In this document: positions 42,216-61,186 of the stretch, one piece after another
Numbering within the stretch: position 1 is the stretch's first letter
How the letters are laid out: every line of letters starts with the position of its first letter
Source of the DNA: an uncultured bacterium
GTDB taxonomy: Bacteria; Krumholzibacteriota; Krumholzibacteriia; Krumholzibacteriales; Krumholzibacteriaceae
Reading direction: 5' to 3'
Assembly: GCA_963813815.1 (NCBI GenBank)
Contig: CAWFAD010000008.1
Coordinates: 96,001 to 160,000 of the forward strand
Length of the DNA stretch: 64,000 nucleotides
Position numbers and translations under genes: made by a program
Notes under the pieces: generated by a model
Databases searched by the model: none
Seen by the model: the letters and a program-made list of their open reading frames with translations, nothing else
Told to the model about the DNA's origin: nothing

Positions 42216-42398
42216 GCGTATATCCTCCGGTTCGGGGCGGTTTCCGCGTCACGAGACGGAGATGCATTGTAGCCGAAACCTTCCCCGTCCGCAATGCGCG
42301 GCGGGCGCGAGATTCCTCAATTGTTTCACGCGCCGAAATGAGGTATAATAGAATTATTATTTGTTATCGGACGGCCCTGTCGAAGGAGATTGCATCGC

Positions 42399-45300
42399 AT
42401 GAGACCATCGATTTTCACGAGGATCGCGGCCATCGCGTTCATCCTGTCGGGGGTCGCTCTCGCCTCCGCCCCGCTCCTCGCCGAGGAGAGCGCGGAGCAG
42501 CGCATCGAGCGCATCAACAAGGAGAACGCCGAGAAGGGGTACCACTGGACGGCGGGCATCACTTCGATGTCGCGGCTCACCCCCGAGGAGAAAAGGCTTC
42601 GTCTCGGATTCATCCCTCCGACCGAGGATCTCATTTCGACGACCTCGACGATCACCGAGCCGGCCGCCGTCCTCTTCGACGCGGTCTTCGACTGGAGGCC
42701 TCTCGGCGGGGTCACCGCCGTGAAGGACCAGGGATCGTGCGGCTCGTGCTGGGCCTTCGCCGGCATCGGGCAGGTCGAGTCCCACATGCGGATTTTCGAC
42801 CAACGGATCGAGGATCTCTCGGAGCAGGCGATCATCGACTGCAATCCCTACGATCAGAGCTGCGACGGCGGCAACGCGATCGGCGTGTACGTGACGGTGA
42901 GGGACTCCGGGGCCGTTCTCGAGACCTGCGTTCCGTACCAGGCGCGCGACGACCTGCCGTGCACGGAAAGCCTGTGCGAGGTCATGGCGCGCATCGCCAC
43001 GTACTCGTCCGTTTCGAACAACATCAATGCGATCAAGACGGCGCTCGCGACGGGGCCGGTCTACACGAGCATGACCGTCATCGACAACTTTTTCGATTAC
43101 TCGGGCGGTTGCTACAACTCGACGACGACCGAGTCGACGAACCACGCGGTGCTCATCGTGGGCTGGGACGACACGGCGTGCTACGGCTCGGGCGCCTGGA
43201 TCTGCAAGAACAGCTGGGGCGAGGATTGGGGCGAGGACGGGTTCTTTCACATACAGTACGGCGTCTGCAACATCGGCTCGTGGAGCTATCAGATCAGCTA
43301 CATTCCGAGCGTCGTCTTCGTCAGAGTCGATTCGCCGGACGGCGGCGAGGTCTGGAACGTCGGCGAGCATCGTCTCATCACGTGGACGTTGGCGCGGCAG
43401 ACGCCCGACTCGATCAGCGTCTACCTTAGCCTCAACGGAGGCGACAGCTACGATTACACGATCGCGAGCGGCATGGAAAACGTCACCACGTACGACTGGA
43501 TCGTTCCCGAGCTTCCGGTGACGACGGCGCGGATCAAGGTCGTCGCGTACTACGGTGGAGAGATCGGCGGATGGGACGCGAGCGACACCGACTTCGAGAT
43601 CAAGGGCAAGCCGTATCGCTACGTGTCGACGACGGGCGGCAACGTCTATCCGTACAGCACCGCCGCATGGGCGGCCCGGGCGATACAGGACGCGGTCGAC
43701 GCGGCGGTTCCGGGCGATTCCATTCTCGTCGCGGCGGGGATCTACACCCGGCCCATCATGGTCGACAGGGCCGCGTACCTCTTCGGCGGCTGGAACGCCG
43801 ATTTCACCGCGCGCGATCCCGAGGCGTACCCGACCTGGATAAAATCCTCGGGGAGCAACGTGTCCTTCGTGGGCGTGGCCTCGGGCACGTGCGGCGTCGA
43901 GGGGTTCCGTCTCAAGGGCGGAGTCGGCACCTATGCCCTGCTGCCGACGGGCGCGGCCTACGGCGGCGCGATCTTCAGCTATCTCGCCTCTCCGGTGATT
44001 CGGTGGAACGTGATCGACTCGTGCGGAGTGGCGAGCGTGCTCAACTACAGCGCCGGGGGCGGCATCGCCTGCTACGGCGGCACGCCGGTCATCGAGGACA
44101 ACGTCATCACGAGGTGCATGGCCCAGAGCGGCGGGGGCATTTATCTCTACGAGACGAGCGCCGCGATCCGCCGCAACACGATCTCTGGGTGCGCGCCGAA
44201 CGTCGAGTTCAACGGCACGAAAAACGGCGGCGGCGTCCACGCGTACCACGCGACGATGACGCTCGAGGGGAACACGATCACCGATAACGACGGATACCGG
44301 AAGGGGGGCGGGATCTACGGATACTTGAGCCCCTGCGAGATGTCGGGCGACACGATCGCGCTGAACGACAGCAAGGACGCGGGCGGCGGCGTGTTCGCCG
44401 AGCGGTCGGCCCTCTCGATCTCGGGCGCCCTGATCCGCGCCAACACTTCGCTCTCGATGGGAGGCGGCGTCTACCACCGGGCCGGCGCCCTCAACGTCTC
44501 GAACTCGATCATCGCGCAGAACCGCTCCTCGATCATCGGGGGCGGCGTCTACGCCGACAGCTCCTACGGCTCGTTCTCGAACAACGTCGCCGACCGCAAC
44601 GCCGGGCTCTACGGCGGCGGCAACGTCTTCTTCGGCAATCTGCCCTCGATGGCGGTCGAGAACAACTGCGTCACGTACGGGTCGGTGAACGGCGTGCAGG
44701 TCATCTCGGCGGCGAACATCGCGTTCCGCTACAACGATTGCTTCGGCAACACGCCGGCCAACGTCGTGACGCTCGTTCCCGACGCGACGAACGCGAGCTT
44801 CGATCCCCTCTACGCCGACACCGCCGCGGGCGACTATCGCCTCCTCGTGCACTCGCCCGCCATCGACGCCGCCGATCCGGCCGATCTCGATCCGGACGGC
44901 TCGCGGGCGGATATCGGCGCCTTCGGCGGCCCAGGCGCCGTCATGGCGGCTCCCGAGTACGTCCGCAACCTCGCCGCCGCCCCGTACAACGCCTCGACCA
45001 TCAGGCTCACCTGGGACGCCGCCGCGGGCGGCGCGAGCTGGTACGCCGTTTACGGAAGCGACGCATCGGGCCTCGTCCCCTCGCTCGCCTCGTTCATCGC
45101 GAGCGTCCCGGCTCCGGCGACCACCTTCGACCACACGCCGGTCTCGGGCTGCCGCTACTATCGCGTCTCCGCGGTGAGCGCGGACGGATACGGCGGCGGC
45201 TACGCCGCCGAGGCGGGCGCCTGCGCGGCGGACGTCGATCTCATCGCGCCGACCGTGAGCGTGACGTATCCCAACGGCGGCGAGGTGCTCGAATCGGGCG

Positions 45301-45860
45301 ATACGATCGCGATCGACTGGGAGGCGAGCGACAACCGCTGGGTCGACTCTGTGAGCGTCTACTTCTCGCACGACGCCGGAGCCACTTTCGAGCTCGTCGC
45401 CGGCGGGCACGCTCCCGACCTGCCGTGCTCCTGGGTCGTTCCGCCGCTGCTCTCCGACTCGTGCCTCGTCCGGGTCGTCGCCTACGATCCGGGGCTCCTC
45501 GAAGGGACCGACTCGAGCGACTCGCTCTTCGCCATCCGCAACTACACCGGCGTCGACGGGGACGATCCCGAGACGCCGCGCTGGACGACCTCGCTCGAGC
45601 AGAACTTCCCGAACCCCTTCAACGGCACGACCACCATCGCCTATTCGGTCGGGGAGCGCTCGGATATCGAGCTCGGGATCTTCGATCCGGCCGGGCGGTC
45701 CGTCCGCGTCCTCGTCCGAGCGGCGCGCGAGCCGGGACGCTATCACGCGGTCTGGGACGGCAGGGACGACGCAGGCCGGGACGTCGCCTCGGGCGTCTAC
45801 TTCTGCCGCATCAAGACCGGAAGCTACAGCCAGACCCGAAAGGTCGTCTACGTGCGCTGA
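42399..45860 (+). CDS. Secreted C1A (papain-family) cysteine protease with beta-helix, FN3-like and C-terminal sorting domains
   Basis: DQGSCGSCWAF, NHAVLIVGW, KNSWG. GGGI repeats of a right-handed beta-helix. LEQNFPNPFN...WDGRD..GVYF..RKVVYVR. Confidence 0.9.
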   Translation: MRPSIFTRIAAIAFILSGVALASAPLLAEESAEQRIERINKENAEKGYHWTAGITSMSRLTPEEKRLRLGFIPPTEDLISTTSTITEPAAVLFDAVFDWRPLGGVTAVKDQGSCGSCWAFAGIGQVESHMRIFDQRIEDLSEQAIIDCNPYDQSCDGGNAIGVYVTVRDSGAVLETCVPYQARDDLPCTESLCEVMARIATYSSVSNNINAIKTALATGPVYTSMTVIDNFFDYSGGCYNSTTTESTNHAVLIVGWDDTACYGSGAWICKNSWGEDWGEDGFFHIQYGVCNIGSWSYQISYIPSVVFVRVDSPDGGEVWNVGEHRLITWTLARQTPDSISVYLSLNGGDSYDYTIASGMENVTTYDWIVPELPVTTARIKVVAYYGGEIGGWDASDTDFEIKGKPYRYVSTTGGNVYPYSTAAWAARAIQDAVDAAVPGDSILVAAGIYTRPIMVDRAAYLFGGWNADFTARDPEAYPTWIKSSGSNVSFVGVASGTCGVEGFRLKGGVGTYALLPTGAAYGGAIFSYLASPVIRWNVIDSCGVASVLNYSAGGGIACYGGTPVIEDNVITRCMAQSGGGIYLYETSAAIRRNTISGCAPNVEFNGTKNGGGVHAYHATMTLEGNTITDNDGYRKGGGIYGYLSPCEMSGDTIALNDSKDAGGGVFAERSALSISGALIRANTSLSMGGGVYHRAGALNVSNSIIAQNRSSIIGGGVYADSSYGSFSNNVADRNAGLYGGGNVFFGNLPSMAVENNCVTYGSVNGVQVISAANIAFRYNDCFGNTPANVVTLVPDATNASFDPLYADTAAGDYRLLVHSPAIDAADPADLDPDGSRADIGAFGGPGAVMAAPEYVRNLAAAPYNASTIRLTWDAAAGGASWYAVYGSDASGLVPSLASFIASVPAPATTFDHTPVSGCRYYRVSAVSADGYGGGYAAEAGACAADVDLIAPTVSVTYPNGGEVLESGDTIAIDWEASDNRWVDSVSVYFSHDAGATFELVAGGHAPDLPCSWVVPPLLSDSCLVRVVAYDPGLLEGTDSSDSLFAIRNYTGVDGDDPETPRWTTSLEQNFPNPFNGTTTIAYSVGERSDIELGIFDPAGRSVRVLVRAAREPGRYHAVWDGRDDAGRDVASGVYFCRIKTGSYSQTRKVVYVR

Positions 45861-47087: not shown

Positions 47088-50000
47088 TCAGCGCACGCGC
47101 ACGCGATAGACGATGCTCCCGGAAGCGCCGCTCTCGAGCGGATAGGGCGCCTGGCGCGAGAGAAGGACGCTGAGCGTCCCTCCCGCGGCGTCGAACATCG
47201 CCTCGTCCGGGTCGAGGGGATCGGCCGTGAGGTACACGGGCACGCCGTCGCGCAGCCACTCCACGTCGAATCCCGGGCCGAAGGCGTCGAGCACGAGCTC
47301 GACCGCCGGCGGTAGGAGATCGATGATTTCGATCTCTTGCACCGCCTCGACGCCCGGGTTCGCGAACGTGATCGTGTACGTCAATACGTCCCCGGGCCGC
47401 GCCTCGGCGAGATCGACGGATTTGGCGAGGGAGAGTAGCCCGCTCGAGCTCGCGAGCACGAGCACCCGGTCCATGGCCGACGCCTCCGCCGTGATCGCCG
47501 TGCCGGCGAGCGTCTGGGAGAGCGTCACCGTGATCGCGCCGATCGTTCCGGCCGGAGCTTGCGGCGGAACGAACACGCGCATGACGATCGGAACGACGTC
47601 CTTCCCCGGAACGTCCGGATCGAGCGCCAGATCGGCCGCCGTGATGAGCGAATCGCCCGGACCGCACGCTCCGTCGCCGTCGTTGTCCCGATAGAAGGCC
47701 GCGACCCATCCCGGCGGCAGCGTCGCGGAGAGGGTCGCCTGTCCCGCCGTGCCCGCGACAACGAGATGCGGCGCGTCGACGAATCCGCCGGCGACGCAGG
47801 TGAGATCGTTCGACGGCGTGATCGCGGGGCCGCGGACGTCCGCGAAATCGACGCGCAGCGTCTCCCCCGCCGCGGCGGCCGCGATCATGACCGTATCGGG
47901 CGAGAGCGATATCATCCCCGCCGGCGTGAGCTCGACGAGCGTGCGCGGCGTTCCGGAGGCGGCCTCGAAGGAATACGACCCGTCGCCGCCGGTGAGCTGC
48001 GCGAGGGTTCCGTCCGGGCCGGCGAGCGTGACGGAAACGCCCGTCCATCCTTCCTCGCACGCGTCCCGCACGCCGTCGTGATCCCGGTCGTCGAACGCGA
48101 CGCCGGCCACGAAAGCGCCCGTGCCGATCTCGAGCGTGACGCTGTCCTCGAGGTCGCGCGAGAGCGCGATGCCGTCGATGATGATCGGCGTGCGGAGCGC
48201 GGCGAACGCCGGAATGTACACCTTGACGGTGAAGATCCGGACGTCTCCGGGAACGATGACGCCGACGTCGTACGGCGACGAGTGATCCCCCGAGCCGTCG
48301 GAAATGACGACCGATCCGGCCGGCCAGCCCGCCGGGGCGGACCAGGACACCCGGAACGAGTCGGGATATCCGCCGCGATTCCAGAGCTCGAGCGTCGCGG
48401 TCGCCATCGCGCCCGGATCGCCGAAGACGAGCGCCAGGCCGCCGTCGCCCGAGCCGGGCGGCGCCGACACGAAAGCGCCGTCACCCTCGATCACGAGATC
48501 GGCGCGCGGCGGCATGCTCACCTGAACGCGGGCGCATACGCTTTCGCCGTTCGTGGAATCGAGCGTCGACACGGCGTCGATGATATAGTCGTAGTCGCCG
48601 GCGAGGGCCGAGAGCGGCACGCTGACGGTGAAGGCGAGGAGCAGCGCGTCGCCCGGCGCCACGGAGGCCGTCGTGTAGGGCGAAGCCGAGCCTTCGAGCC
48701 TCGCCGTCATGCCCGGGACGGCGTTCCAGGAAACGCGGTAGCTCTCCGCTTCGGCGCCCTCGTTCTGGAGCTCCACGGTAAAGGCGATCGTCCTTCCGGC
48801 GACCGTGCTCTGGAGCGACGAGCCTCCCGCGCCGGTCCCCGGATCGCCGAATATCCCGTCTCCGTACCCGTCGATGAGCCCGTCGACGACGCGCGGCGGC
48901 GTCACGCGGACGCGGCCGAGCACGCTGTCGACGAAATAGCGCTTGTTCGTTTTGCATCCGTCGATGACGACGTCGAACGTGCCGCCCGCGCAATCGGCGG
49001 GAACCGACACGGTCATCGTGTAGGCGCCGGCGGGAACGCGGCGCATCGTGGAGGTCGAATCGCCGATGCGGACGTCCCACCCCGGCGGAGTGTTCCACCA
49101 GACGTCGAAGAGATTCTCGCCCGACTCGTTCTGGATCGTGACGGCGAAGGTGACGGTGCTTCCCGGAGTCGCCGTCTTGACCGACGAGCCGCCGAGGCCG
49201 GTGCCGGGCGAGGCGTACGCGTTGTCGCCGTTCCCGTCGATGAGAATATCGATCTCGTTCCCCGTCGCGACCGAAATCGACGCCTTGACGCTCTCGCGCA
49301 CCGTGCCCGACACCGAGGACAAGAAGTTGAATATCGAGGTAAACGTGTCGTAGGCCCCGTTCAGGGGAATCCCCACGGCGAGGACGCAGGGGCGCTCGCT
49401 CCGCGGCGCCATGGTCGGCGTCCTCCACGGAAGCGCGTACGTCGTTCCGTTGTCGATGATGGAGACCGTCCAGCCGCTTGCCGGCGGGACCCAGGACACG
49501 GTGAAGGAGTCGGCGACCCCGCCCTCGTTCTGGATAACGATCGGGAAATACACGGTCGTTCCGCGCGTGCCCGCGACGGAAACGCTCCCGCCGAGCCCCG
49601 CCCCGGTCGGATCGATGATGCCGTCCCCGCTCCCGCAGATGACGACGTCCACCTTCGGGGCGAGCACGCGCGTCACGGCCCTCACCGCGTCCTTCTTCAA
49701 GGTGTCGGTGAGGGAGGTCGCGCGGACGAGGCTCGTATAGTCGCCTCCGAGGAGCGACGCGGGCACGTACACGCGATAGGAATACGACTCCGAGCCGCCC
49801 GACGGAACGAGCCCCGAGCTGAAGGCGCCCGTCCGGACGATCGCTCCGTCGAGAACGTCAGCCGTGAGCGGCGAGGGCGTGGCCCAGTCGACCCGGAACG
49901 AATCGGCGTTCGCCCCTTCGTTATAGAGCGCGATCGTATAGGCCACCATGGCGTTCGGCGCCGTCTCGCGATACGATATCCCGCCTCCGCCCGAGGGATC

Positions 50001-51050
50001 GATCACGCCGTACCCGTTCGCGTCGATGACGAGATCGGCGAGGTAGTCCGCGGGAACGACGTTCGTCGCGAGGCGCACGCTGTCGTAGCGGTTCGCGTAG
50101 ACGGTCGAGACGGCGTCGACGATGGTCGAGTAGCCGCCGACCGCGGCGCCGGGCGGCACGATCGCGACGACCTCGGCGCTGATCGTGGAGCCCGCCGGGA
50201 CGGCGGGCGTGGTCCACGGAAACGCGTACGTCGCGCCTCCGTACCGGACCGACACGCTCCAGCCGGCGGGGGGCGTCGCGCTGAGGCGATAGGTGTCCGC
50301 GGCCGGCCCCTCGTTCTCGACGTCGAGGAAATACGCTATCGTATCGCCCGCCTCGCCGCTCCGGACCGAGTACCCGCCGCTCCCCGTCCCCGCGGCGCCG
50401 AAGAGATCGTCGCCGTCGCCGTCGACCGCGAGATCGACCCATCGGCGATAGACGAGCGACACGTTGTCGACATAGGACCACGTTTCGTAGGAGTTGTTGA
50501 CGCTGTTCTCCTGAAGAAAGTACAGCCGCACGGTCTGCCCCGCGTAGGCGCTCATATCGTATCCCACGGGCGCCGCGGCGTTGTCGTCGAGCCAGCCCGA
50601 ATCCTTGAAGAGGTTGTTCGCCTCCGAGAAGGAGTAGCTGATGACCGTGGCGAGCACGGCGTTCGCCGTGTTGCGGATCTGCATTCGGAACGGATCGCGG
50701 TTCGAGCCGTCGTACCCCTGCTGGCGGAACGCGAAATAGAGAGTCGCCTGCGAGAAGTTCGTCGGAATCGCGACGTCCTGATAGATGTATCCATAATAGT
50801 TGGCGCGGGGCTGCGCGTACTTGAAGCCGATGAGGGCCGAGTAATCGCCGCTGCGCGGCAGATCGAGCACGACGATATGATCGGCGAAGCTCTGATCGGT
50901 GGAGCCCCCTACGATGCTCCCCGCGCCGTGCACCCACCCGCCCGAGAAGCTGCCCGTCTCGAATCCCCCGTTTTGCACGAGCTCTCCCGCGTTCGCGCGC
51001 GTCGCCGCGATCGCGGCGAGAAGATATATGCCGGCGACAAACCGTCTCAT
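47088..51050 (-). CDS. Large secreted repeat protein: CBM-like N-terminus, six Ig-like repeats, SdrD-B-like domain, C-terminal DUF11-like domain (putative tip adhesin)
   Basis: Signal peptide, ELVQNGGFETG, repeated D..IDG.G...G.G.GG, F.D.D.DG..D..E.G..GV.V.L, and LAKSVD...PGDVLTYTITFAN...IIDLLP...YRVRVR-stop. ATGA overlap with the upstream gene. Confidence 0.8.
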   Translation of the reverse strand: MRRFVAGIYLLAAIAATRANAGELVQNGGFETGSFSGGWVHGAGSIVGGSTDQSFADHIVVLDLPRSGDYSALIGFKYAQPRANYYGYIYQDVAIPTNFSQATLYFAFRQQGYDGSNRDPFRMQIRNTANAVLATVISYSFSEANNLFKDSGWLDDNAAAPVGYDMSAYAGQTVRLYFLQENSVNNSYETWSYVDNVSLVYRRWVDLAVDGDGDDLFGAAGTGSGGYSVRSGEAGDTIAYFLDVENEGPAADTYRLSATPPAGWSVSVRYGGATYAFPWTTPAVPAGSTISAEVVAIVPPGAAVGGYSTIVDAVSTVYANRYDSVRLATNVVPADYLADLVIDANGYGVIDPSGGGGISYRETAPNAMVAYTIALYNEGANADSFRVDWATPSPLTADVLDGAIVRTGAFSSGLVPSGGSESYSYRVYVPASLLGGDYTSLVRATSLTDTLKKDAVRAVTRVLAPKVDVVICGSGDGIIDPTGAGLGGSVSVAGTRGTTVYFPIVIQNEGGVADSFTVSWVPPASGWTVSIIDNGTTYALPWRTPTMAPRSERPCVLAVGIPLNGAYDTFTSIFNFLSSVSGTVRESVKASISVATGNEIDILIDGNGDNAYASPGTGLGGSSVKTATPGSTVTFAVTIQNESGENLFDVWWNTPPGWDVRIGDSTSTMRRVPAGAYTMTVSVPADCAGGTFDVVIDGCKTNKRYFVDSVLGRVRVTPPRVVDGLIDGYGDGIFGDPGTGAGGSSLQSTVAGRTIAFTVELQNEGAEAESYRVSWNAVPGMTARLEGSASPYTTASVAPGDALLLAFTVSVPLSALAGDYDYIIDAVSTLDSTNGESVCARVQVSMPPRADLVIEGDGAFVSAPPGSGDGGLALVFGDPGAMATATLELWNRGGYPDSFRVSWSAPAGWPAGSVVISDGSGDHSSPYDVGVIVPGDVRIFTVKVYIPAFAALRTPIIIDGIALSRDLEDSVTLEIGTGAFVAGVAFDDRDHDGVRDACEEGWTGVSVTLAGPDGTLAQLTGGDGSYSFEAASGTPRTLVELTPAGMISLSPDTVMIAAAAAGETLRVDFADVRGPAITPSNDLTCVAGGFVDAPHLVVAGTAGQATLSATLPPGWVAAFYRDNDGDGACGPGDSLITAADLALDPDVPGKDVVPIVMRVFVPPQAPAGTIGAITVTLSQTLAGTAITAEASAMDRVLVLASSSGLLSLAKSVDLAEARPGDVLTYTITFANPGVEAVQEIEIIDLLPPAVELVLDAFGPGFDVEWLRDGVPVYLTADPLDPDEAMFDAAGGTLSVLLSRQAPYPLESGASGSIVYRVRVR

Positions 51051-54000
51051 GGCCGCTCGTTCACCCCCGCCCCGTGAAAGTAGCTCAGGATTTTCTCGTT
51101 GAACTTGAGCCGCATGCCGACGTGAAATCCCCGGCGCGAGTAACAGTTATCGGCCGTGTCCGTGTCCTCGCGCCCTCCGAAATCGTATCCGGCGCCGACC
51201 CACACGTTCCCGGCGACGACCCGTCCGGCCTCCACGCCGCCGCCGTAGCTCGTCGTATGAGTCTCGAGCTGGCTCACGACGCGAGCCGCGAGGCTCACGT
51301 CCCACCGTCCGCCGAACGTCCGTATGACCTGCGTCTGATACAGCACGGCCGACGCGGCGGCGGAGTATTCGCGGAAGGTGTTCTCGACGCGGCGCCCCGC
51401 GATCTTTCCCTCGATCTCCCAGTCGGCCGCCGGCCGCCAGTTCGCCTCGAGGGAGGCGAGGTTCTCGCGATCGATCCCCTCGGGATGCGCGGGGCTTCGC
51501 TCCTCGTAGCTCGAGCGGAGGAGCGAGAGAACCGTGAGCGCGTCGCCGCCGCCCGGCCTGACGGAGACGCCGAGCAGGCCTCCTCCCTTGACGTGATCGG
51601 CCTCGCGCTTCTCGTCGGAGAACCAGAGGTCTCCCCGGAGCAGCACGGCCAAGCGCTCGCCGATGCGCCGGAGCCCGGCGAGCTCGGCGAGATGCTTGCG
51701 GCGATCGGGCTCGAGGCGGAGCTCGTAGCTTCCCTTGAGCCGGTAGTCCCCGGCCGCGGGCGTGTAGGCCGCGTTCGTCGACCAGGAGAAATGATCGTCG
51801 ACCGCCTCGCCGCTCACCGTGGCGACCTTCTCGATCGCGACGACCGCCGAGAGCTCGTCGGAGAGCGCGAGGCGCTCCTTGACGCCGAATATCGCCTGCG
51901 CGCGCTCGCCGCTCATCGCCCCCTCGAGCTGGTACCGCGTGTACGCCTGGAGACGCTCCGATACGTTCGACTCGAGACCGAGCTGCGTGAGATGCCTCGT
52001 GCCGGTATGGCTTCCCGTCCGGTACTCGTGCTTGAGCACGGCCGAGACGCGGCGCCAGAGCCGCTGCGAGAGCTTCGCCTGTATGCGGTTCGGATACTCC
52101 TCGACTTCCTCGCCGTCGAGAATCTGGTCCCACTCGATCGCTCCGGCCGTCCGCTCTCCGCCGAGGCCGAGGCCCGTGCGCAGGAGGACGCTCCGGGCGT
52201 TTCCGTCGCGAGCGTCGTTCCGGGCGGCGGCGGCGAAACCCACCGTGCAATCGAGGCGCCCGGCCGTGTACCGCGCGGTGAGATCGCCGTAGCTCTTTTC
52301 CTCGTCCCGCTCCCGGAGCTCGTGCCGGAAGCCCCGCGCGCCGAGCGCGAGCGTCGGCGCGACCCGCCAACTCGCTTCCGCGCCGAGCTTGCGGCTCCCG
52401 AGCTCCGTCTTGCCGCCCGTGAAGGACGGATTGAAGAACGAGTCGTCGACGTCGCGGTAGTAGGCGCTCCACCGGAGGACGCGATCGCGTTCTCCCGCGA
52501 AGCGAATCCGGAAGGCGCTGCCGCCGCCGAGGACGAACTTGTCGCTGCGCGCGAGCTCGCTCTCGATCCGGACCCCGTCGGCGAGCCGGCCCGCGAGATC
52601 GACGCCGAAGAGCGTCGAATTTTCCACGCCCTCCTCCTCGAGCACCGCGGTCACACCGAAGGCGAGGCTGTCGGCGACCTCGAGCGAGCTGCGGACGCCG
52701 TAGATGAAATTGCGCTCCCCCGCGTCGCGGCATTCGTAGCTCACGACGATGGTCACGGGATCGAGGTTCTCGTCGAACCGGGGAATGGGCTCCTTGAAGA
52801 GAATGCTGCCGTCCTCGTAGTTGATGTCGTAGTCGCGGTTCACCTGCTGGTAATCCACGCGCAGGATCCGCTCGGAGAGGTAGCGGTCGCGAACCTCGAT
52901 GCGCACCTTTTCGCTCCCCTCGACGAGCGGGTAATGCTCGAGAAAATAGAATCCACTCGTTCCCTCGCCGGCGAGCTCTTCCTGATAGGTCGCCTGATCG
53001 GTGTTCGTGACGAACGCCCGGATCGAGCCCTGCGGCAGTCGCGCCTCTCCCGAGAGGCCGTTCATGGAGCGGTGGTATTTCGTGAACTCGGTGCTCGCGA
53101 ACTCCGTCCGAAAATCGCCGAGCATCGCCGAGTACCGGCGGTGATCGAGGCGCGCGAACACGCCGCTGCGGGAGGCGGTGTTGAACCGCAGCTCGCTCGC
53201 GTCGCCGTAGACCGGGTAGTACTTCTCCGGCTCGATGCGGCGGAAGAGCATGTCGTCCCGCACGGGCCGCGTGTTGATCGCCGCGGTGAGAACGTGTCCG
53301 GCGCGCACCTCGCCCTGCCCGTAGAGGGCGACCATCCCCTCGGCGTAGCCCCCGTCCGGATTGCGTTCGAGGGAGCGGTGCGCTCCGCCCGCCCCGCCGA
53401 GCGAGGAGTAGCCGAGCGCCCCCTCGCCGTACCCCATGAGGAACCAGCTTCTCTGCGGGCTCTCGTAGTCCACGCGGCAGGCGGCGGATGCCGTTCCGAG
53501 CGCGACGCGCACGAGCTCGCGCCGCGAGTCGCGCAGCGGGGGGAGCCTGAGCGTCACGCGCCCGCCGGCGGTCGCGGCCTGCACGCCGGCCTGCTGCGGA
53601 TTGACGTCGAGCGAGTCGACGAGATCGGCGGGGCCGGTCACCGCCACAAAAACGCCGTCCCGGACCGGGAGCCCGTTGCGGTCGCTCACGAGGAACACCG
53701 CCTCGGGACGAGAGACGCCGTCCGCCGGCGCCGATACGGTCTCGCGCTCGGCGACGATCGCGTGCGGCCGCCCCGCGAGATACACGTGCCGCACGCAGGT
53801 GCTCCGCCTGCCGCCGTACTCGCGGCACACCACGAGAATGTCGTTCCGGCCCTCCTCGATCTTGACCCCGTAGAAAACGGTGCCGAAGACGCCGGCGGCG
53901 ATGTCGATCTTCTTGAGCCCGATGCGGTCCCGTCCGATCGGAAGGCCGTTCACGTAGAGCTCGACGTCCGAGCCGAGCGGCGAGACGACGTCGACGTCGA

Positions 54001-56827
54001 TCTCTCCGCGGGAGTAGAATACCGCTCCCTCGGCGGGCCGGACGATATCGGCGCACAGGCCCGACGAGTCCGAAAGGGCGTACGTGCTCGTATCGGCGCG
54101 GGCGAGCTCTCCGGCGAGCCCCGGATCGCCGGCCGCCGAGCCGGCTGGGGGCACGACGCGGATCTCGACGCGCCGGTTCATCGCGCGCCCCGCCTCGGTG
54201 GCGTTCGTGGCGACCGGTTCGCGATCGCCTCTCCCCGTGTAGTCCATGCGATCCTCGGGAATGCCGTTCATTCTCAGCACCTGAAACACCGAGCGCGCGC
54301 GGGCGAGCGAGAGCTCGAGGTTCGAGGGGAACCGCGCGCTCGCGATCGGTATGCTGTCCGTGTGTCCCTCGACGAACACCGTCCAGCCCTCGTGCTCGCG
54401 GATCCAGAGCGAGAGGGCGGCGATTCGCGAAAGGGGAACGCCCTCGATCAGGGCCTCCCCCGCGCTGAAATGCGTGCCGGGAATCGTGATGGCGTCGAAG
54501 TCCGGCGTCCGCTGCGACGTGGCCGCGGCTCCCGCGGCGGCCGCCGGGATCGTCTCCGGGGCGTTTTCGGAAGGCCGCGCCGGCGGAGGACCGGCGAGCG
54601 CCGAGTCGGCGGCGGCTCCGGCGGCCGCTCCGCCCGCCGCCCGAACCACCGCGAAATCGACCCGCCGGTGGCCGCTCGGCGCGAGGTCGATGAGCGCTTC
54701 GCCCTTCTCCCCGTAGCCGAAATGGCCCGCGTCCCCGGCCGCGAGCGAGTCGGCGAGGGAGGAGGGATCGAGGCGCACGGCGTGCCGCCCCTCGACGACG
54801 CCCGGGATCGAGTAACGTCCGGCCGCGTCCGTCACGGCGTAGGTGCCGTCTTCGATGAACACGGACGCCCCCGGGACGCCCCGCTCCCCCTCGTCCCACG
54901 CGCCGTCCCGGTCGTCGTCGGCGAAAACGGCCCCCGAGATGACGCCGCGCCGCGTGAAGATTCCCTCGACGATGAGCACCGAGGCGCGCGCGGGGCCGTC
55001 GCTCGCGCGCTCGCCGGCGCTCGTCACGCAGTGCGCCCACGCGCTTCCCGTGAGCCTTCCCGTCTCCTGCCCCGAACCCACGCGGGCGCGGAAAACGATT
55101 TCCCGCTTCTCCCCCGGCGCGAGCGAGCCGAGGCTCCACGAGAGGGCGCCGCCGTCGATCGCGGGCGCCATGCTGCCGGTCGCGTACTCGAGACCGGCGC
55201 ACAGACGCTCGACGACCTCGACGCTGTCGAGCGTCGTTTCGTCCGCGACGTTCTCGACCGTCACGATGAAGCTGACGACGTCGCCGACCATGGCGACCGG
55301 CTCGCGGATCGACTGCGAGACGGAAACGAGAGGAATGAACGACTTGAGCAGAACGTCCTCGACCCGGTCGCTCGAGCCCGCGACCGAGAGGGAGGCGGCC
55401 TCGAGATCGAAAACGAGCTCCCTCCCGTCGAAGAGCCGGAATCCCTCCGGAGTCGATTCGAGCCGCAGCCCGACGACGACGGAGGCGCCGCGCGGAACGA
55501 CGCCGGCGAAGGCCCGATACCGCGAGAGGCTCTCGAGCGGCGCGCCGGTCGAATCGACGAACGCGATCCCCCATTCGGGGGGAATCGCCGCCGAATCGGC
55601 CACGGCCACCGAGATGCTGTCGTCGAAATTGCCGCCGTTCAGAATCTCGTGCCAGAGAACGTAGGAGCCGTCGGTGCCGTTGAGCGCCGCGACCACGCGG
55701 TCGGCGGGGGTTTCCGCCGGCGCGTCGGGGTCGCCGCGCGGGCCGATGGCGACGAGGCTCACGCGGCCCACGAGTACGAGGACCTCGTTCGAGACGGCCT
55801 CGCGGTCGGCGCCGGCACCGTCGAGATACGCGCACGACGCCCGGTCGAGAATCCATCCCTCGGGGTGATCGTCCCGCACCCGCGTCCGGTACGAGAAGGC
55901 GCCCGACTCTCCCGCCGAAAGGCTGTCGAGAAGGAGGCGCACGCCCTTCACGCGCTCGGCCGGAGGCTCCGTGGAGGTCCAGACGGATGCCGCCGCGTCG
56001 AAAAATTCGATCCGCCCGCCGAGGGACGAAGCGGCGGATCCCGCGGCGAACTCCGCGCCCGTCAGCACGCCGCCGTCGTCGATTCGCGACTCCAGCGCGA
56101 CGAGCGTCGCGGCCCGCTCTCCCGAATTCTCGAAGTCGATCGCGAAGCCGATCGTATCGCCCGGCAGCGCCGCCGCGGCGTCCGCCGAGAGCGAAAGGGC
56201 GACCGAGGCTTCCGCCCGCGCCGTGACGCGCACGACGTTGCCGCGATCGTACAATGATGTGTCCTCCGACGATCGCGCGACGAGATCGATGTGCGCCGTC
56301 TCTCCTCCGGCGAGGCCCGGCGGCAGAACCGCCTCGAGCAGCAGGAAAACCGATTCGCCCGGATCGAGCGGTCCCACGCTCGTGACCTCGGGCTCTCCCG
56401 CGTCGAGTGCCCCGTCTCCGTCGGCGTCGATGTACACGGCCGTCCGCGCCGGGACGAAGCTCGACGGTGCGGGATACGCGATCGCGAGCGCGAAGGCGTC
56501 CTCGACGTTCCCCGCGTTTTCCAGCCGGAACGGGAAGCGCACCGTCTCCCCAGTGAAGGCGAGCGCCGTCGCCGCGGGACTCGAAACGGTTCCGTCGGGG
56601 GTCAAGAGGGGGCCGTAAGCGGCGAGAACGCTCACGAAAACGGTGTTCGAAAAGATCGAGAGCCGCGCTCCATCGCGGTCGTAAACCGCCTCCGACCGGC
56701 TCGAGATGACCTGTCCGGCCGGCGGAGCTTGGCCGCGGACGAGCGAAGGAAACAGGGCGAGCCCCGCAACCACAAGCAAGAAAAGGGCTTGCCCCCTTCT
56801 CGATCGTATGGCCAACGGTCCGCTCAC
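51047..56827 (-). CDS. Very large outer-membrane protein: DUF11/Ig domains, SdrD-B-like domain, OmpA-like peptidoglycan-binding domain, C-terminal beta-barrel
   Basis: GHTDS...NLELSLARA..V...G.G...P.A.N...GRAMNRRVEI. The C-terminal ~800 aa are amphipathic strands ending FHVGMRLKF plus a short tail. GGAGG RBS before GTG at 56827. Confidence 0.85.
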   Translation of the reverse strand: MSGPLAIRSRRGQALFLLVVAGLALFPSLVRGQAPPAGQVISSRSEAVYDRDGARLSIFSNTVFVSVLAAYGPLLTPDGTVSSPAATALAFTGETVRFPFRLENAGNVEDAFALAIAYPAPSSFVPARTAVYIDADGDGALDAGEPEVTSVGPLDPGESVFLLLEAVLPPGLAGGETAHIDLVARSSEDTSLYDRGNVVRVTARAEASVALSLSADAAAALPGDTIGFAIDFENSGERAATLVALESRIDDGGVLTGAEFAAGSAASSLGGRIEFFDAAASVWTSTEPPAERVKGVRLLLDSLSAGESGAFSYRTRVRDDHPEGWILDRASCAYLDGAGADREAVSNEVLVLVGRVSLVAIGPRGDPDAPAETPADRVVAALNGTDGSYVLWHEILNGGNFDDSISVAVADSAAIPPEWGIAFVDSTGAPLESLSRYRAFAGVVPRGASVVVGLRLESTPEGFRLFDGRELVFDLEAASLSVAGSSDRVEDVLLKSFIPLVSVSQSIREPVAMVGDVVSFIVTVENVADETTLDSVEVVERLCAGLEYATGSMAPAIDGGALSWSLGSLAPGEKREIVFRARVGSGQETGRLTGSAWAHCVTSAGERASDGPARASVLIVEGIFTRRGVISGAVFADDDRDGAWDEGERGVPGASVFIEDGTYAVTDAAGRYSIPGVVEGRHAVRLDPSSLADSLAAGDAGHFGYGEKGEALIDLAPSGHRRVDFAVVRAAGGAAAGAAADSALAGPPPARPSENAPETIPAAAAGAAATSQRTPDFDAITIPGTHFSAGEALIEGVPLSRIAALSLWIREHEGWTVFVEGHTDSIPIASARFPSNLELSLARARSVFQVLRMNGIPEDRMDYTGRGDREPVATNATEAGRAMNRRVEIRVVPPAGSAAGDPGLAGELARADTSTYALSDSSGLCADIVRPAEGAVFYSRGEIDVDVVSPLGSDVELYVNGLPIGRDRIGLKKIDIAAGVFGTVFYGVKIEEGRNDILVVCREYGGRRSTCVRHVYLAGRPHAIVAERETVSAPADGVSRPEAVFLVSDRNGLPVRDGVFVAVTGPADLVDSLDVNPQQAGVQAATAGGRVTLRLPPLRDSRRELVRVALGTASAACRVDYESPQRSWFLMGYGEGALGYSSLGGAGGAHRSLERNPDGGYAEGMVALYGQGEVRAGHVLTAAINTRPVRDDMLFRRIEPEKYYPVYGDASELRFNTASRSGVFARLDHRRYSAMLGDFRTEFASTEFTKYHRSMNGLSGEARLPQGSIRAFVTNTDQATYQEELAGEGTSGFYFLEHYPLVEGSEKVRIEVRDRYLSERILRVDYQQVNRDYDINYEDGSILFKEPIPRFDENLDPVTIVVSYECRDAGERNFIYGVRSSLEVADSLAFGVTAVLEEEGVENSTLFGVDLAGRLADGVRIESELARSDKFVLGGGSAFRIRFAGERDRVLRWSAYYRDVDDSFFNPSFTGGKTELGSRKLGAEASWRVAPTLALGARGFRHELRERDEEKSYGDLTARYTAGRLDCTVGFAAAARNDARDGNARSVLLRTGLGLGGERTAGAIEWDQILDGEEVEEYPNRIQAKLSQRLWRRVSAVLKHEYRTGSHTGTRHLTQLGLESNVSERLQAYTRYQLEGAMSGERAQAIFGVKERLALSDELSAVVAIEKVATVSGEAVDDHFSWSTNAAYTPAAGDYRLKGSYELRLEPDRRKHLAELAGLRRIGERLAVLLRGDLWFSDEKREADHVKGGGLLGVSVRPGGGDALTVLSLLRSSYEERSPAHPEGIDRENLASLEANWRPAADWEIEGKIAGRRVENTFREYSAAASAVLYQTQVIRTFGGRWDVSLAARVVSQLETHTTSYGGGVEAGRVVAGNVWVGAGYDFGGREDTDTADNCYSRRGFHVGMRLKFNEKILSYFHGAGVNERP

Positions 56828-56972
56828 ACTGTTTCCTCCAGAAACGAAACGAGAGGTTGGCCCTTTCTCGGAAGCCAACCTCCAGTTCGGCGTTTTCACG
56901 CCCGATACGCTGGATGGTGCCGACTCATCGCTGCTCGCTTCTCGCTATCCTACCGCCCGTTTCTTGAAAGTC

Positions 56973-57002
56973 GTTGCGGGGCGCCTTTCGGCGCCCCGCA
57001 AC
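56973..57002 (-). terminator. Intra-operon hairpin (partial terminator or mRNA stabiliser)
   Basis: Perfect 13-bp stem GTTGCGGGGCGCC/GGCGCCCCGCAAC with a GAAA loop on the minus strand, 12 nt after the stop of the DUF11 shaft candidate. Confidence 0.7.
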
Positions 57003-57014
57003 TCGCCGCGCCGA

Positions 57015-59711
57015 TTATTCCGCTATGATGCGAACGATAAAGGCCGCGCCGTCGGCCGTGCCCGCGCCGCCGGCGAGGGATCCCGCGAGCACCCAGCGAA
57101 CGTTCGTCACGCTCGCGTCGAAGCCCGCCGGAGCGCCGCCGCCGCCGCTCACGGGTGTGTAGGCCCACGTGGCGCCACCGTCATCCGAGAACTCGATCGT
57201 GATGCCCGTGATGCCCGGGGCGAGCGTTCCCGTGACGGCCGAGCCGACCCGGTACTGCGTCCACGCCGGGATCGCGTCATAGATTTCGATCGCCGCGAGA
57301 TCGGCGGTGCCCACGTTCGAGTAGTCGGTCCGGTAGGTGAGCTCCGTTCCCGGAAGCTGCGAACCCGACGGATTGACGGATTTCACGAGAACGAGATTGC
57401 CGGCGACGATCGTCGTGACGTCCGTCGCCGTGTCGGTCGCGCCGGTCGCCTGGCCCGTCGCGCTGATCGTCCCCGTCTCGACCGTGCCGAGCGGCACGCC
57501 CGACGGAATCGAGAGCTGGACGATGACGTTCGTCGAAGCGCCCGGGGCGAGCGTGACGGCCGCGATCGGGTTGTTCGCGAGATCGAAGTACGCGTACGAC
57601 CAGCCGTTCGAGCTCACCGCCGCGAACAGGAACGTGTCGCCGACGTTGCCGGTGTTCGTCACGGCGTGCTGGTAGCGCACCGTTCCGCCGCTCGTGCCGG
57701 TGCCGGCGCGATCGGGGTCGATGGTGACGGAGGCCGCCTGCAGAATCGTGACGGTGTCGGCGATCTCGTCGAAGACGGAGCCGTTATTGGCCGAGGTCGC
57801 CCGGAAGGTCACGGGATTGACGCCGGGAACGGCGCCGAGCGGCACGGCGACGCGCGCTATGACGTTCACCTCGTTGCCGCCCGCGATGGGGCCCACGCCC
57901 GTGATCGGGGTGAGCTCCGGCAGGTCGAGAAGGCCGTTGGCGTTCACGTCGAAATAGTACGTGGCGACCCAGCCCGCGGGAACGGAAGCGGAGAGGTTGA
58001 AGTTGTCGGTCGAGCCGCCCGTGTTGATCACGTCGAGCGCGAAGTCGACGTTCACGCCCGGATTGGCGTTCTGGTTGACCGCGACGTTGTTCGTGCCGGG
58101 AACGCCGTCGTAGTTGCCGATGTCGACCGAGGCCGGCGCGACGAGCGCGATCCGGTCGGTCGTGATGTTCGACTCGGCGGGATCGTTCGCCGAGACGGCC
58201 TGGATGACGGCGTCATACGGACCGCCGGCGCCGGCCGTGCCCGGGATGATGATCCGCACGATGAAATCGCGCGTGTCGCCGGGGTTGAGCGTTCCCACGT
58301 CGGGAATGCCGTCCGTGCCCGTGTCGCCGAGCGGCGTGACGCCGTCGCTGCGGAAGAAGAGCACGCTCCAGCCGGCGGGGATCGTCGAAGCGCCGTCGAG
58401 GACGATGTTGATCTCGTCGGCCGCGTTGCCGTCGTTCCGCACGGTGTTCGTGAAGGAGACGGTCGAGTTGGCGTACGCGAGCGGAATCGACTGCACGTCG
58501 TCGGCGTAGTTCGGCGGCGTGCCGGCGGCCGGCTGGCCGACGGGACCGACGAGCACGTCGGCGAGAACGTTCACGTTGATCTGCGTGTTGTTCGTCGGAA
58601 CGATCGTCGGATCGGGAGAACCGGGGTTGTTGTCCGTGAACGCGACGGCGCCGCTGTTGTTGATGATGCCGGCGCGCATCGTGACCGGAACGACGAGATC
58701 GTAGCCGAAGCTGTAGTTCTGTCCGACCGGGAGCGCGCCGTTCGTGAGATACGCCACGGCGATATCCCCGGCGCCCGCGATCGCGGACCATGCCCACGTC
58801 TCGGGCGAACCCGCCATCGGGCTTCCGGCGGGCAGGTACAACACCGATCCGCCCGCGGGGGCTCCGGCGGGGGCGCCGGAGAGCGCGAGCGGAAGACCCG
58901 TCGTCGGGTCGGTCGGCAGGGCGTCGTACATGAGGACGCCCGTGAGGCCGACGGAGGGAACGGTGACGCCGTTCGCGGGCTGGGTGCCCACGTTGGCGCC
59001 CGTGATCGTGTAGGTGATGACGTTGCCCGGATCGACGTTCGCGGGCACGCCCGACATCACGGCGGTGAGCACGGCGTCGCTCACGACGTCCGTCAGATGG
59101 TAGTTCCGTGTGTCGATGCGGGTCGGATCGCCCGCGGAGGCGCCCTCAACGCCGACGTAGGCGACCTCGCCGACGAGCGAGCCGGGAGGCACCTGATAGG
59201 TGACGAGGATGCCGACCGTCGTTCCCGCGGCGATCGGTCCGAGGTTGCCCGGAACGCCGCCCGAGGAAATCGCCGGTTCGCCGCCGTCGAGAACGCCGTT
59301 GCCGTTCGCGTCATAGTAGATCGTGATGTCGCCGAGCCCGAGCGTCATCGTCGTGTTGGCGGCGTCGAGCAGCGGCTCGATCGAGTATATGTCGGCGTCG
59401 TTGCCGGTGTTCGTGAGGCTGTAGCTGTAGTAAACGGTCTGCCCCGGTATGGCGGTCTGCGTCAGAGCCGGCGTCACGGGCGGGGTCTCGCCCGAATCGT
59501 CCGGAAGGATCGACAGCCCGTACACGGGGAGCACGATCGTCGTGACCTCGTTCGAGGTCGCGGTGTACGTGTTGCCCGAGAGGTCCTGGAACCTCGCCGA
59601 GGCTTGGTTCCGGATCGTCGTGCCGGCGGGGGTCTGCGCCTGCGCCGCCGAAACGACGCAGAGCACGACCGCCAGCATGGCGACGCCGGAGAATAGACGC
59701 GCCTTGAACAT
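57015..59711 (-). CDS. Secreted multi-Ig/DUF11 repeat protein (putative major fibre subunit)
   Basis: Signal peptide ending AQA, then TPAGTTIRNQA. Repeats N.GN..D. C-terminal LVKSV..PGTELTY..YSNVG..IYDAIP. Thr/Asn/Gly-rich. AAGGAG RBS. Confidence 0.85.
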   Translation of the reverse strand: MFKARLFSGVAMLAVVLCVVSAAQAQTPAGTTIRNQASARFQDLSGNTYTATSNEVTTIVLPVYGLSILPDDSGETPPVTPALTQTAIPGQTVYYSYSLTNTGNDADIYSIEPLLDAANTTMTLGLGDITIYYDANGNGVLDGGEPAISSGGVPGNLGPIAAGTTVGILVTYQVPPGSLVGEVAYVGVEGASAGDPTRIDTRNYHLTDVVSDAVLTAVMSGVPANVDPGNVITYTITGANVGTQPANGVTVPSVGLTGVLMYDALPTDPTTGLPLALSGAPAGAPAGGSVLYLPAGSPMAGSPETWAWSAIAGAGDIAVAYLTNGALPVGQNYSFGYDLVVPVTMRAGIINNSGAVAFTDNNPGSPDPTIVPTNNTQINVNVLADVLVGPVGQPAAGTPPNYADDVQSIPLAYANSTVSFTNTVRNDGNAADEINIVLDGASTIPAGWSVLFFRSDGVTPLGDTGTDGIPDVGTLNPGDTRDFIVRIIIPGTAGAGGPYDAVIQAVSANDPAESNITTDRIALVAPASVDIGNYDGVPGTNNVAVNQNANPGVNVDFALDVINTGGSTDNFNLSASVPAGWVATYYFDVNANGLLDLPELTPITGVGPIAGGNEVNVIARVAVPLGAVPGVNPVTFRATSANNGSVFDEIADTVTILQAASVTIDPDRAGTGTSGGTVRYQHAVTNTGNVGDTFLFAAVSSNGWSYAYFDLANNPIAAVTLAPGASTNVIVQLSIPSGVPLGTVETGTISATGQATGATDTATDVTTIVAGNLVLVKSVNPSGSQLPGTELTYRTDYSNVGTADLAAIEIYDAIPAWTQYRVGSAVTGTLAPGITGITIEFSDDGGATWAYTPVSGGGGAPAGFDASVTNVRWVLAGSLAGGAGTADGAAFIVRIIAE

Positions 59712-59767
59712 TTGAAACCACACTCCTTCGTGAAGCTCCCGCGAACGGCCGCGCGCGGCCGAACGGG

Positions 59768-60259
59768 TTACTTCACCTGCACGCGATAGGAGACCGAAAC
59801 TTCCTTGCCGACCTCGAGAACGCTCGAGATGTCCCACATGATGTGCGTATACATATCGGGTGTCGCGACGCGCGGCTCCTCGATGCCCCGTTCGTTTACG
59901 ACGTTGTAGCGAACGGGAGCTTCGTGGAACGACTTGCCGCCGTCGATGCTGTAGCTGGTCTTCGCGGCGCCGCTCTCGGTCGCGGTCTTCTCCAGGTACT
60001 CGGTCCCCGCGGGGATCGGCCCCACGAGGCTCACCCCGGAGGCCGGAGCGTCGCCGACGTTGCGGTAGCGCAGCGTGTACTCGAGACGGTCGCTCGGAAA
60101 GACCTTCTCCGCGGAAACCGCGGTCTCGCGGTTTTCCGCGTCAACGACGATCTTCCGGGCTTCCATCGTGCCGGCGAGGGTCGGCCCCTTGCCGTACGCT
60201 GATGCGGAGAGCGATGCGACGATGAGGAAAATGGTCGCAACGACGAAACTCGCTCTCAT
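59768..60259 (-). CDS. Small exported single DUF11-like domain protein
   Basis: Signal peptide. PSDRLEYTLRYRNVG, PIPAGTEY, YSIDGG, THIMW, VSYRVQVK-stop. Confidence 0.8.
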   Translation of the reverse strand: MRASFVVATIFLIVASLSASAYGKGPTLAGTMEARKIVVDAENRETAVSAEKVFPSDRLEYTLRYRNVGDAPASGVSLVGPIPAGTEYLEKTATESGAAKTSYSIDGGKSFHEAPVRYNVVNERGIEEPRVATPDMYTHIMWDISSVLEVGKEVSVSYRVQVK

Positions 60260-60556: not shown

Positions 60557-60583
60557 AAAAAGCCCCCCCGTGCGGGAGGGCTT
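60557..60583 (-). terminator. Intrinsic terminator of the YHS lipoprotein gene
   Basis: Minus strand GCCCTCCCG-ca-CGGGGGGGC followed by TTTTT. Confidence 0.7.
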
Positions 60584-60657: not shown

Positions 60658-60972
60658 TTACTTGTCCCCGCTCTCTTTCTCGCCGATGTACTTCTGCGGA
60701 TCCGCCTTGAAGGCTTCCATGTTCTCCGCGCTCGCGAAATAGTAAATCACGCCGTCGAGCTCGAACGAGTACGGCGTGCTCATCACGTCGATCTCTTCCT
60801 TGCTCACCAGATCGTAAGACGGGCTCACCTTGCCGGCCCGCTCCGATGCGTCCGCCGCCGGGGTCGCGGTCTGCGTGGTCTCGTTCGCCGGGGCCTGCTC
60901 CGTCTTCTTCGAGCATCCGAACGAAAGCGCGATGAAAAGGGCGAGGCTCAGGACGACAATCATTCTCATCAT
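60658..60972 (-). CDS. Small lipoprotein with a YHS-like domain
   Basis: Lipobox LSFGC, low-complexity linker, DLVS...Y..DG..YYFAS..N...F.ADP.KY. GGAGG RBS. Confidence 0.75.
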   Translation of the reverse strand: MMRMIVVLSLALFIALSFGCSKKTEQAPANETTQTATPAADASERAGKVSPSYDLVSKEEIDVMSTPYSFELDGVIYYFASAENMEAFKADPQKYIGEKESGDK

Positions 60973-61186
60973 GGTTGTGTGCACCTCCCTTCGATCGATA
61001 GCAGCGATGCGGGTGTTTCGTGTTTCGAAGCACGTTGTCCGTGTCGCCTTTTTGAAGGTCGGAAAATAGCAGATTCCCCGGGAAAGTCAAGAAAACAGTG
61101 GCGGCGGCGGCGGCGGGTGGCGTAGTACTGTCAATCGAATGGGCGGCGCCGGACGGGGTCCCGCCGCCGAACCGAGAGGAGTCGAC

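Follow-up and report, generated by a model that had tools for sequence, protein, structure and literature searches.

An operon with a DUF11/CLIPPER domain split between protein termini is a candidate builder of a covalently locked surface fibre

Genes at the locus

A minus-strand operon in an uncultured Krumholzibacteriaceae bacterium encodes four putatively secreted proteins built from whole and partial copies of a DUF11/CLIPPER domain. We analysed a 64,000-nucleotide stretch of DNA, hereafter the window (assembly GCA_963813815.1, contig CAWFAD010000008.1, positions 96,001 to 160,000), in which a preliminary description had read these genes as a donor-strand fibre system with its own outer-membrane barrel. 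One CLIPPER domain is split across the two ends of the shaft subunit, a feature our analysis confirmed. The operon fairly probably builds a covalently locked surface fibre, assembled head to tail and rooted in an outer-membrane barrel.

The four open reading frames each have a ribosome-binding site and a signal-peptide-like N-terminus. Named for their predicted roles, they run in the order small protein, shaft, anchor and tip, with a 4-nucleotide overlap between the anchor stop and the tip start. Pfam and NCBIfam profiles matched DUF11/DUF7507, NEW3 and SdrD_B in the four proteins, and OmpA in the anchor. Among 1443 heuristically called genes of the genome, only these four matched the DUF11 body. 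Named homologs belong to Candidatus Krumholzibacteriota or Latescibacterota.

59768..60259, minus strand: small secreted lone acceptor, 163 amino acids; truncated CLIPPER body with Gly80 at the catalytic Asp position; candidate cap or chaperone
57015..59711, minus strand: shaft subunit, 898 amino acids; signal peptide, donor hairpin, immunoglobulin (Ig) domain, intact CLIPPER, three Ig domains, C-terminal acceptor
59526..59636, minus strand: shaft donor hairpin, residues 26-62, Asn35 codon at 59607-59609; recognised by profile, conservation and complex model
58569..59084, minus strand: internal intact CLIPPER of the shaft, residues 210-381; structural match to PDB 9IFR (Z 11.3, root-mean-square deviation 2.5, 122 of 123 residues)
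57018..57404, minus strand: C-terminal acceptor of the shaft, residues 770-898; Lys777 (57381-57383), Asp812 (57276-57278)
51047..56827, minus strand: anchor or platform, 1926 amino acids; donor hairpin, Ig and CLIPPER domains, SdrD_B, OmpA, Ig domains, large beta-barrel
56618..56731, minus strand: anchor donor hairpin, residues 33-70; the Asn position holds Ser43
47088..51050, minus strand: tip candidate, 1320 amino acids; N-terminal jelly-roll-like domain, Ig repeats, SdrD_B, C-terminal acceptor; no donor
47091..47444, minus strand: tip acceptor; Lys1210, Asp1244

A CLIPPER domain split across subunit ends

An independent control profile located both halves of the split domain. The profile was built from 147 unrelated giant repeat proteins, taken from a 50%-representative search that they filled; 2572 repeats were cut and 441 kept, up to three per protein. 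Shaft residues 762-869 aligned to profile positions 5-95, the domain body, and residues 24-59 aligned to positions 95-130, the last two strands (independent E-value 5.5e-4), while the internal domain at 209-377 spanned positions 10-127. The C-terminal domain of the shaft thus lacks its last strands and the mature N-terminus carries them, as had been proposed. The small protein (46-162) runs as far as position 94 and ends there; the tip acceptor covers 11-70, and its last strand is the same terminal strand.

Profile-profile comparison gave the same partition. The anchor's intact internal domain was tiled by the shaft C-terminal domain (14-113, E 4.9e-7) and the shaft N-peptide (120-151, E 4.6e-6), and the anchor N-peptide matched the shaft N-peptide at E 2.9e-14. 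The N-termini of the tip and small protein did not match it (E 0.22 and 0.71). The halves are therefore distributed non-randomly, as first suggested: the shaft has both, the tip and small protein only the acceptor, the anchor only the donor. Holding one half each, neither tip nor anchor can complete itself.

Sequence searches of the PDB with the shaft and small protein, as single sequences and as profiles, returned no meaningful match, and neither did the tip acceptor or tip N-terminal domain. An FtsH match in the PDB search (E 0.012-0.02) was taken as chance. Matches in the ESM Atlas were hypothetical or DUF11 clusters only.

The isopeptide triad is divided with the domain

The split separates residues of a predicted isopeptide triad. 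The published CLIPPER triad is Lys715, Asp748 and Asn806 (10.1101/2025.04.25.650565), and the control profile conserves Lys (82%), Asp (83%) and Asn (90%) in that order. In the shaft, Lys777 and Asp812 lie in the C-terminal acceptor and Asn35 in the N-terminal donor. Among the 120 homologs listed of 443 found, on which all shaft homolog counts rest, Lys777 and Asp812 were each conserved in 120 and Asn35 in 119, with one gap. The mature shaft contains no lysine besides Lys777, and the mature chain has a single lysine in 97 of the 120; this conserved single lysine is the strong signal among the triad residues. The internal CLIPPER keeps its isopeptide Lys in just 13 of the 120, the window's shaft having Met there, and no listed homolog extends more than three residues beyond Ile895. 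The domain had been described as CnaB-type; CLIPPER/DUF11 is CnaA-like instead.

The shaft has the second-lowest lysine content of 363 genome proteins of at least 500 amino acids, with 19 trypsin sites in 873 residues. Such a fibre may have been overlooked because it offers few trypsin sites and would not enter a gel if cross-linked.

Acceptors elsewhere in the operon differ in these residues. Lys1210 and Asp1244 are both present in the tip acceptor. In the small protein the Asp position is occupied by Gly, as it is in 120 of 120 homologs, and none of these continues beyond the terminal strand; the Lys position cannot be placed uniquely and falls on Met32 or Lys36. In a set chosen by hand for diversity, both Lys and Asp were kept by 27 of 30 acceptors from shafts and tips, and 12 of 14 small proteins lacked one or the other. 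The top donor-acceptor covariation pairs lay outside the acceptor, at an effective depth of only 23.

Structure models place the shaft donor in the acceptor

Structure prediction was consistent with a donor hairpin separate from the domain that follows it. The AlphaFold2 (AF2) shaft monomer had a predicted local distance difference test score (pLDDT) of 85.8 and a predicted template modelling score (pTM) of 0.38. Its N-peptide is modelled as a hairpin whose strands follow the pattern seen at the end of the internal domain. The proposed N-terminal donor was supported by profile and model and refined to a two-strand hairpin. Besides 9IFR, the internal domain matched BcpA (Z 13.1), and it also resembles Gram-positive pilin CnaA domains. 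Whole-fold alignments of the first shaft Ig domain begin only at residues 63-65, which places the N-peptide outside that domain. Fold-back of the peptide had been named as a refuting outcome; its place outside the first Ig domain argues against one form of this, while the complex model does not distinguish the pairing mode. Foldseek gave generic matches, to Ig chains with the whole shaft and to barrels with the anchor's barrel, and the split C-terminal domain, which was never searched alone, gave no top match.

When the two shaft ends were modelled as separate chains, the N-peptide was placed in the C-terminal domain with a score of 0.85, against 0.01 for the best of three controls, as the suggested check had anticipated. 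Among solved complexes, 116 of 157 reach the mark used for this score; among mismatched pairs, 2 of 215 do. Runs agreed in at least 98% of contacts, with a partner pLDDT of at least 89; donor residues 37-42 adjoin 808-812, and 51-56 adjoin 773-779.

Anchor, barrel and tip

The anchor carries its donor together with an OmpA domain and a predicted beta-barrel and has no acceptor, in agreement with the preliminary description.

54638..55339, minus strand: CLIPPER and SdrD_B module of the anchor; recurs near the C-terminus of single-chain giant adhesins with the same barrel
54152..54460, minus strand: OmpA-family domain, peptidoglycan-binding type (PF00691, E 1.5e-11)
51095..53455, minus strand: predicted outer-membrane beta-barrel, residues about 1125-1911, low-confidence model
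50436..50987, minus strand: N-terminal domain of the tip, putative adhesin; other lineages have different domains in its place

The AF2 model of the anchor's last 1005 residues (mean pLDDT 61) shows a pair of Ig-like domains and a barrel with at least 31 strands in succession and three or more before an insert. Usher structures ranked among generic barrels against this low-confidence model (FimD, Z 13.8, root-mean-square deviation 5.3, 285 residues aligned; PapC, Z 13.2). SprA gave the longest structural alignment, 398 residues, tied with other barrels (Z 15.9, root-mean-square deviation 12.3), and the barrel has no SprA Pfam match. Profile searches assigned the barrel to no known family. The usher family PF00577 was absent from the anchor and 13 homologs and had no candidate in the genome (91% complete; E. 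coli control positive). No PapD-type chaperone (PF00345) was found in the genome either, and the small protein is DUF11-like. These searches uphold the earlier distinction from classical chaperone-usher pili.

The tip is an acceptor-only protein without a donor, as described; its carbohydrate-binding-module-like N-terminus is weakly supported, by a MAM-like match in 3 of 21 homologs.

The pattern is conserved across lineages

Homologous operons keep both gene order and donor/acceptor pattern, and conservation of the pattern was one of the checks that the earlier proposal had named. Small protein, shaft and anchor occur in this order in 20 of 20 distinct relative loci, L002 being a duplicate of L024; the sequence extends to the tip in 15, and in the other five the contig ends inside the anchor. 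Loci L024 and L037 are frameshifted. These relatives share ancestry, and the counts describe conservation and are not statistics. By matches listed, the small gene is present at near full length in 81 of 181 phylum genomes (E 2e-14 or better), and 102 hold any match; a search with the single small protein alone found three loci only.

The split extends well beyond the phylum. Plasmid records from Thermus thermophilus HB8 (TTH_RS10905 to TTH_RS10925, pTT27), Deinococcus gobiensis, Pacificitalea, Picosynechococcus, Kovacikia, Novosphingobium and Acinetobacter carry it as well. The D. gobiensis locus has no small gene, and no tip gene was seen in Pacificitalea. The anchor is two genes, a donor-bearing Ig part and a barrel part, in Thermus (L044:17725-25802) and Picosynechococcus (L047:15451-21608). 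The barrel profile missed the T. thermophilus and Deinococcus barrels, which were assigned by BLASTP (E 4.8e-8 and 4.8e-15). Tip N-termini vary by lineage among DUF3344, beta-helix and MAM-like domains. A five-gene variant has two short shafts of about 330-370 amino acids (L049-L056, L067, L068, L072). In L051, L052 and L054 the donor Asn of one shaft is replaced by Ser, and the tips of L051 and L054 lack Lys and Asp, a hint that the tip joint is ordered and partly non-covalent.

The same barrel family also accompanies single giant genes. Of 27 plasmid records with the barrel, nine were inspected directly; in six of these the barrel follows a single giant gene of CLIPPER repeats. These giants, from alpha-, beta- and gammaproteobacteria (L070, L073-L077), are 1800 to more than 4400 amino acids long, and five of six terminate in the anchor's CLIPPER and SdrD_B module. 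No truncated-acceptor gene occurs in the fetched DNA of the six loci, two of which are cut upstream. The two-gene form suggests that CLIPPER adhesins have a display or secretion route dedicated to them.

Several further features accompany these loci. Asp/Asn/Gly-rich loops of the Dx[DN]xDG type recur in the shaft, anchor and tip (47088-59711), with several residues invariant; we take them to be possible calcium sites. The Sinorhizobium meliloti pSymB locus (L048:13800-21500) holds a shaft with a frameshift and an anchor represented by its N-terminal half, and no barrel was matched within 31 kb; the open reading frame after this half-anchor presumably ends like a trimeric autotransporter anchor. 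Upstream of the window's operon, a terminator-like hairpin with a U-run (60563-60580) follows a YHS-domain gene (60658-60984) and separates it from the operon; a sigma-70-like promoter was sought and none was found. At 42390-45860 lies a protein with a papain-family protease, beta-helix-like and Ig regions, and a C-terminal FlgD_ig or Por_Secre_tail-like domain.

Hints of shaft excess

A conserved RNA hairpin directly follows the shaft gene.

56973..57002, minus strand: 13-bp G+C-rich RNA hairpin directly past the shaft stop codon, without a U-tract (z -3.66; 0 of 200 dinucleotide shuffles)

At this position 30 of the 31 phylum loci have a hairpin (z at most -2 on mononucleotide shuffles), whose stem is kept while sequences differ. 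Hairpins follow the anchor in 1 of 23 loci, the tip in 1 of 21 and the small gene in 5 of 31. The post-shaft hairpin is also present in Thermus, Pacificitalea and Acinetobacter and after one Novosphingobium shaft. It is likely a transcript stabiliser or leaky terminator, and together with the anchor-tip overlap it points to an excess of shaft over the other subunits. papA is followed by a similar hairpin.

Proposed assembly and its alternatives

We propose that the subunits join by exchanging the halves of the split domain. After Sec export and signal cleavage, the N-terminal two-strand hairpin of a shaft would complete the truncated domain at the C-terminus of the next, more distal subunit; such complementation, modelled for the two shaft ends, is highly probable between subunits. 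In the core, Asn35 of one chain would meet Lys777 and Asp812 of another and form an autocatalytic intermolecular isopeptide bond, and judged by CLIPPER chemistry and residue conservation, covalent shaft-shaft links are likely. The polarity of the halves suggests that the acceptor-only tip begins the chain, that surplus shafts extend it from the periplasmic side, and that the donor-only anchor terminates it and tethers it to the barrel and, via OmpA, to peptidoglycan. A polymer with many shaft copies is fairly likely. The barrel may be both exit pore and holder, and its use as an export channel is reasonably probable. Least certain is the part of the small acceptor, which lacks the catalytic Asp and might transiently cap donor hairpins or otherwise aid assembly; for the cap we put the chances at about even.

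The preliminary proposal of a donor-strand fibre with its own barrel is supported computationally in its complementation model, its conserved distribution and the lack of an usher. The chaperone role of the small protein, the usher role of the barrel and the length of the polymer we infer. More broadly, we lean slightly towards a widespread pilus and secretion system of two-membrane bacteria, in which an enzyme-free covalent fibre would pass through its own barrel of more than 30 strands, bearing the terminating donor, and the same barrel family would display single-chain giant CLIPPER adhesins.

The small protein could act otherwise, which would alter an accessory step only. Its two inserted charged hairpin-like segments and its absence from the D. 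gobiensis locus fit a strand-donating chaperone, whose extra hairpin fills the acceptor groove, or a stand-alone periplasmic barrel factor. It ends, however, at the same strand as the other acceptors and shows no donor-like segment by profile, and we regard these roles as possible and less probable than the cap.

A fixed short chain, in which anchor, one or a few shafts and tip form a three-gene version of the single-chain giants and no long pilus, is unlikely. The giants do share the barrel and the terminal CLIPPER and SdrD_B module, shafts are large multi-domain proteins, and the two different short shafts in some loci suggest ordered adaptors. Yet the shaft donor fits its own acceptor type, so sequence sets no bar to repetition, and the post-shaft hairpin and anchor-tip overlap favour many shafts per anchor.

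Still less probable is an envelope scaffold, a periplasmic chain or S-layer-like surface lattice that tethers outer membrane and wall and uses the barrel only as an anchor. Swappable adhesin-like domains on the terminal subunit and a barrel far bigger than anchoring needs argue for the fibre over the scaffold. On the scaffold's side are the anchor donor, which lies N-terminal of the OmpA domain and is topologically periplasmic unless threaded, weak below-cut-off NCBIfam matches of the shaft to archaeal surface proteins, and shaft conservation near 0.8 over the whole length, which suggests lateral contacts.

Closure of the shaft hairpin onto the C-terminal domain of the same chain, which would make a ring-like monomer shut by a covalent bond, could explain the confident AF2 folding of residues 31-60 (block pLDDT 82-90) but is very improbable, as it leaves the donor-only anchor and acceptor-only tip unexplained and has to span five Ig domains between the shaft halves (pTM 0.38).

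Several observations weigh against a covalent polymer on a dedicated barrel, which is predicted here from sequences and models. The shaft N-peptide did not significantly match the shaft's own internal domain (profile-profile E 0.12), and a tail-only profile found homologous shafts and missed the N-termini of the window's shaft and anchor. Because the modelled chains are halves of one domain, the complex may score well through likeness to solved CnaA folds; the model is blind to inter- versus intramolecular pairing, and Lys777-Asn35 is not among the 25 lowest-error pairs listed, although both residues lie in the interface. Invariance of Asp and Asn is weak alone, as the shaft has 57 Asp columns and 60 Asn columns, of which 31 and 24 are equally conserved. 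At the Asn position of the donor, 14 of 14 close anchors have Ser, Ala or Gly (Ser in 12), and Asn appears in most distant lineages; the anchor link would be non-covalent in this lineage. The suggested Lys-Asn bond is predicted for the shaft triad, as an intermolecular link, and not for this lineage's anchor donor. Three of the 30 diverse acceptors, all tips, lack Lys and Asp, and two of the 14 diverse small proteins hold both in one register. The barrel model is poor and similar to all barrels about equally (best Z 16.5). In codon bias the shaft stands only a little higher, at the 91st percentile against the 71st and 82nd, and the post-shaft hairpin is absent in Deinococcus and most short-shaft loci.

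If the proposed assembly holds, the operon would define a new pilus class whose components are unrelated to ushers, sortases and type IV or V machines. It would assign a function to a large, unannotated family of giant barrels, from Thermus to proteobacteria, and would be a covalent fibre of two-membrane bacteria formed without an enzyme. Its split domain would also be a natural counterpart to engineered split isopeptide tags, thermostable ones included.

Comparison with known systems

The domain itself has a described relative. CLIPPER/DUF11 (PF01345, PDB 9IFR) has the same CnaA-like fold and Lys-Asp-Asn order (Costa et al., 10.1101/2025.04.25.650565; PMC12617251). Published CLIPPER domains are intact tandem stalk repeats with an intramolecular bond, whereas here domain and triad are split across protein termini (PMC12617251). 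In its accessible text the preprint (10.1101/2025.04.25.650565) has no occurrence of 'donor', and that of the journal version (PMC12617251) none of 'barrel' or 'operon'. We found no open-access paper on the split DUF11 operon or its barrel; subscription papers or supplements could hold one.

Several other filaments share single traits with the operon. The GhlA grappling-hook filament of Litorilinea is also a DUF11-built surface filament, but is one 6596-amino-acid chain of intact repeats with no signal peptide and no split domain reported in the accessible text (10.1101/2025.08.19.671072). Sulfolobus threads (PMC9715654) are donor-strand filaments with isopeptide bonds, and haloarchaeal tafi (PMC11821415) are donor-strand filaments with a predicted tip-adaptor-shaft-anchor order; both are archaeal, with unrelated subunits and no outer membrane. 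Tafi were considered as a DUF11 relative and set aside, the DUF matches in PMC11821415 being DUF1102. Pam pili of candidate phyla radiation (CPR) bacteria (PMC13278184) share Ig-like subunits with a truncated C-terminal domain, donor-strand assembly, a tip and a terminator-anchor, yet use PapD-like membrane-anchored chaperones, have no outer-membrane platform and are stated to be CPR-specific. Type V pili of Bacteroidota are made from lipoprotein precursors whose C-terminal donor strand is freed by a protease (PMC7616799); the operon's donor is N-terminal, and its mature N-termini have no Cys. No LPxTG-type sorting tail was found, the subunits ending on a beta-strand; a sortase elsewhere in the genome was not searched for.

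BsaA fibres of Clostridium perfringens, of the TasA family, share donor-strand exchange and an autocatalytic intermolecular Asn-Lys bond, mutant-proven there (10.1101/2024.11.04.621531). They differ in their TasA fold, Glu catalyst, monoderm host, SipW processing and lack of a barrel or of a tip, shaft and anchor set sharing one split domain. The four operon genes have no match to the TasA family or its peptidase; SipW was not searched for elsewhere in the genome.

Closest in layout are chaperone-usher pili (FimH-FimA-FimI with FimC and FimD; PapG-PapA-PapH with PapD and PapC), which likewise combine an acceptor-only tip, a donor-plus-acceptor shaft, a donor-only terminator, a barrel and a small periplasmic helper (PMC7616799). 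The operon, in contrast, has a two-strand donor, a multi-domain 900-amino-acid shaft, a predicted covalent link and a terminator fused to a larger barrel and OmpA. The hallmark of chaperone-usher pili, an incomplete Ig domain completed by the N-terminal extension of the next subunit, is seen here in prediction and in another Ig family. The operon falls outside the chaperone-usher, TasA, sortase and type V groups, and what it resembles is a chaperone-usher pilus with BsaA-like locking.

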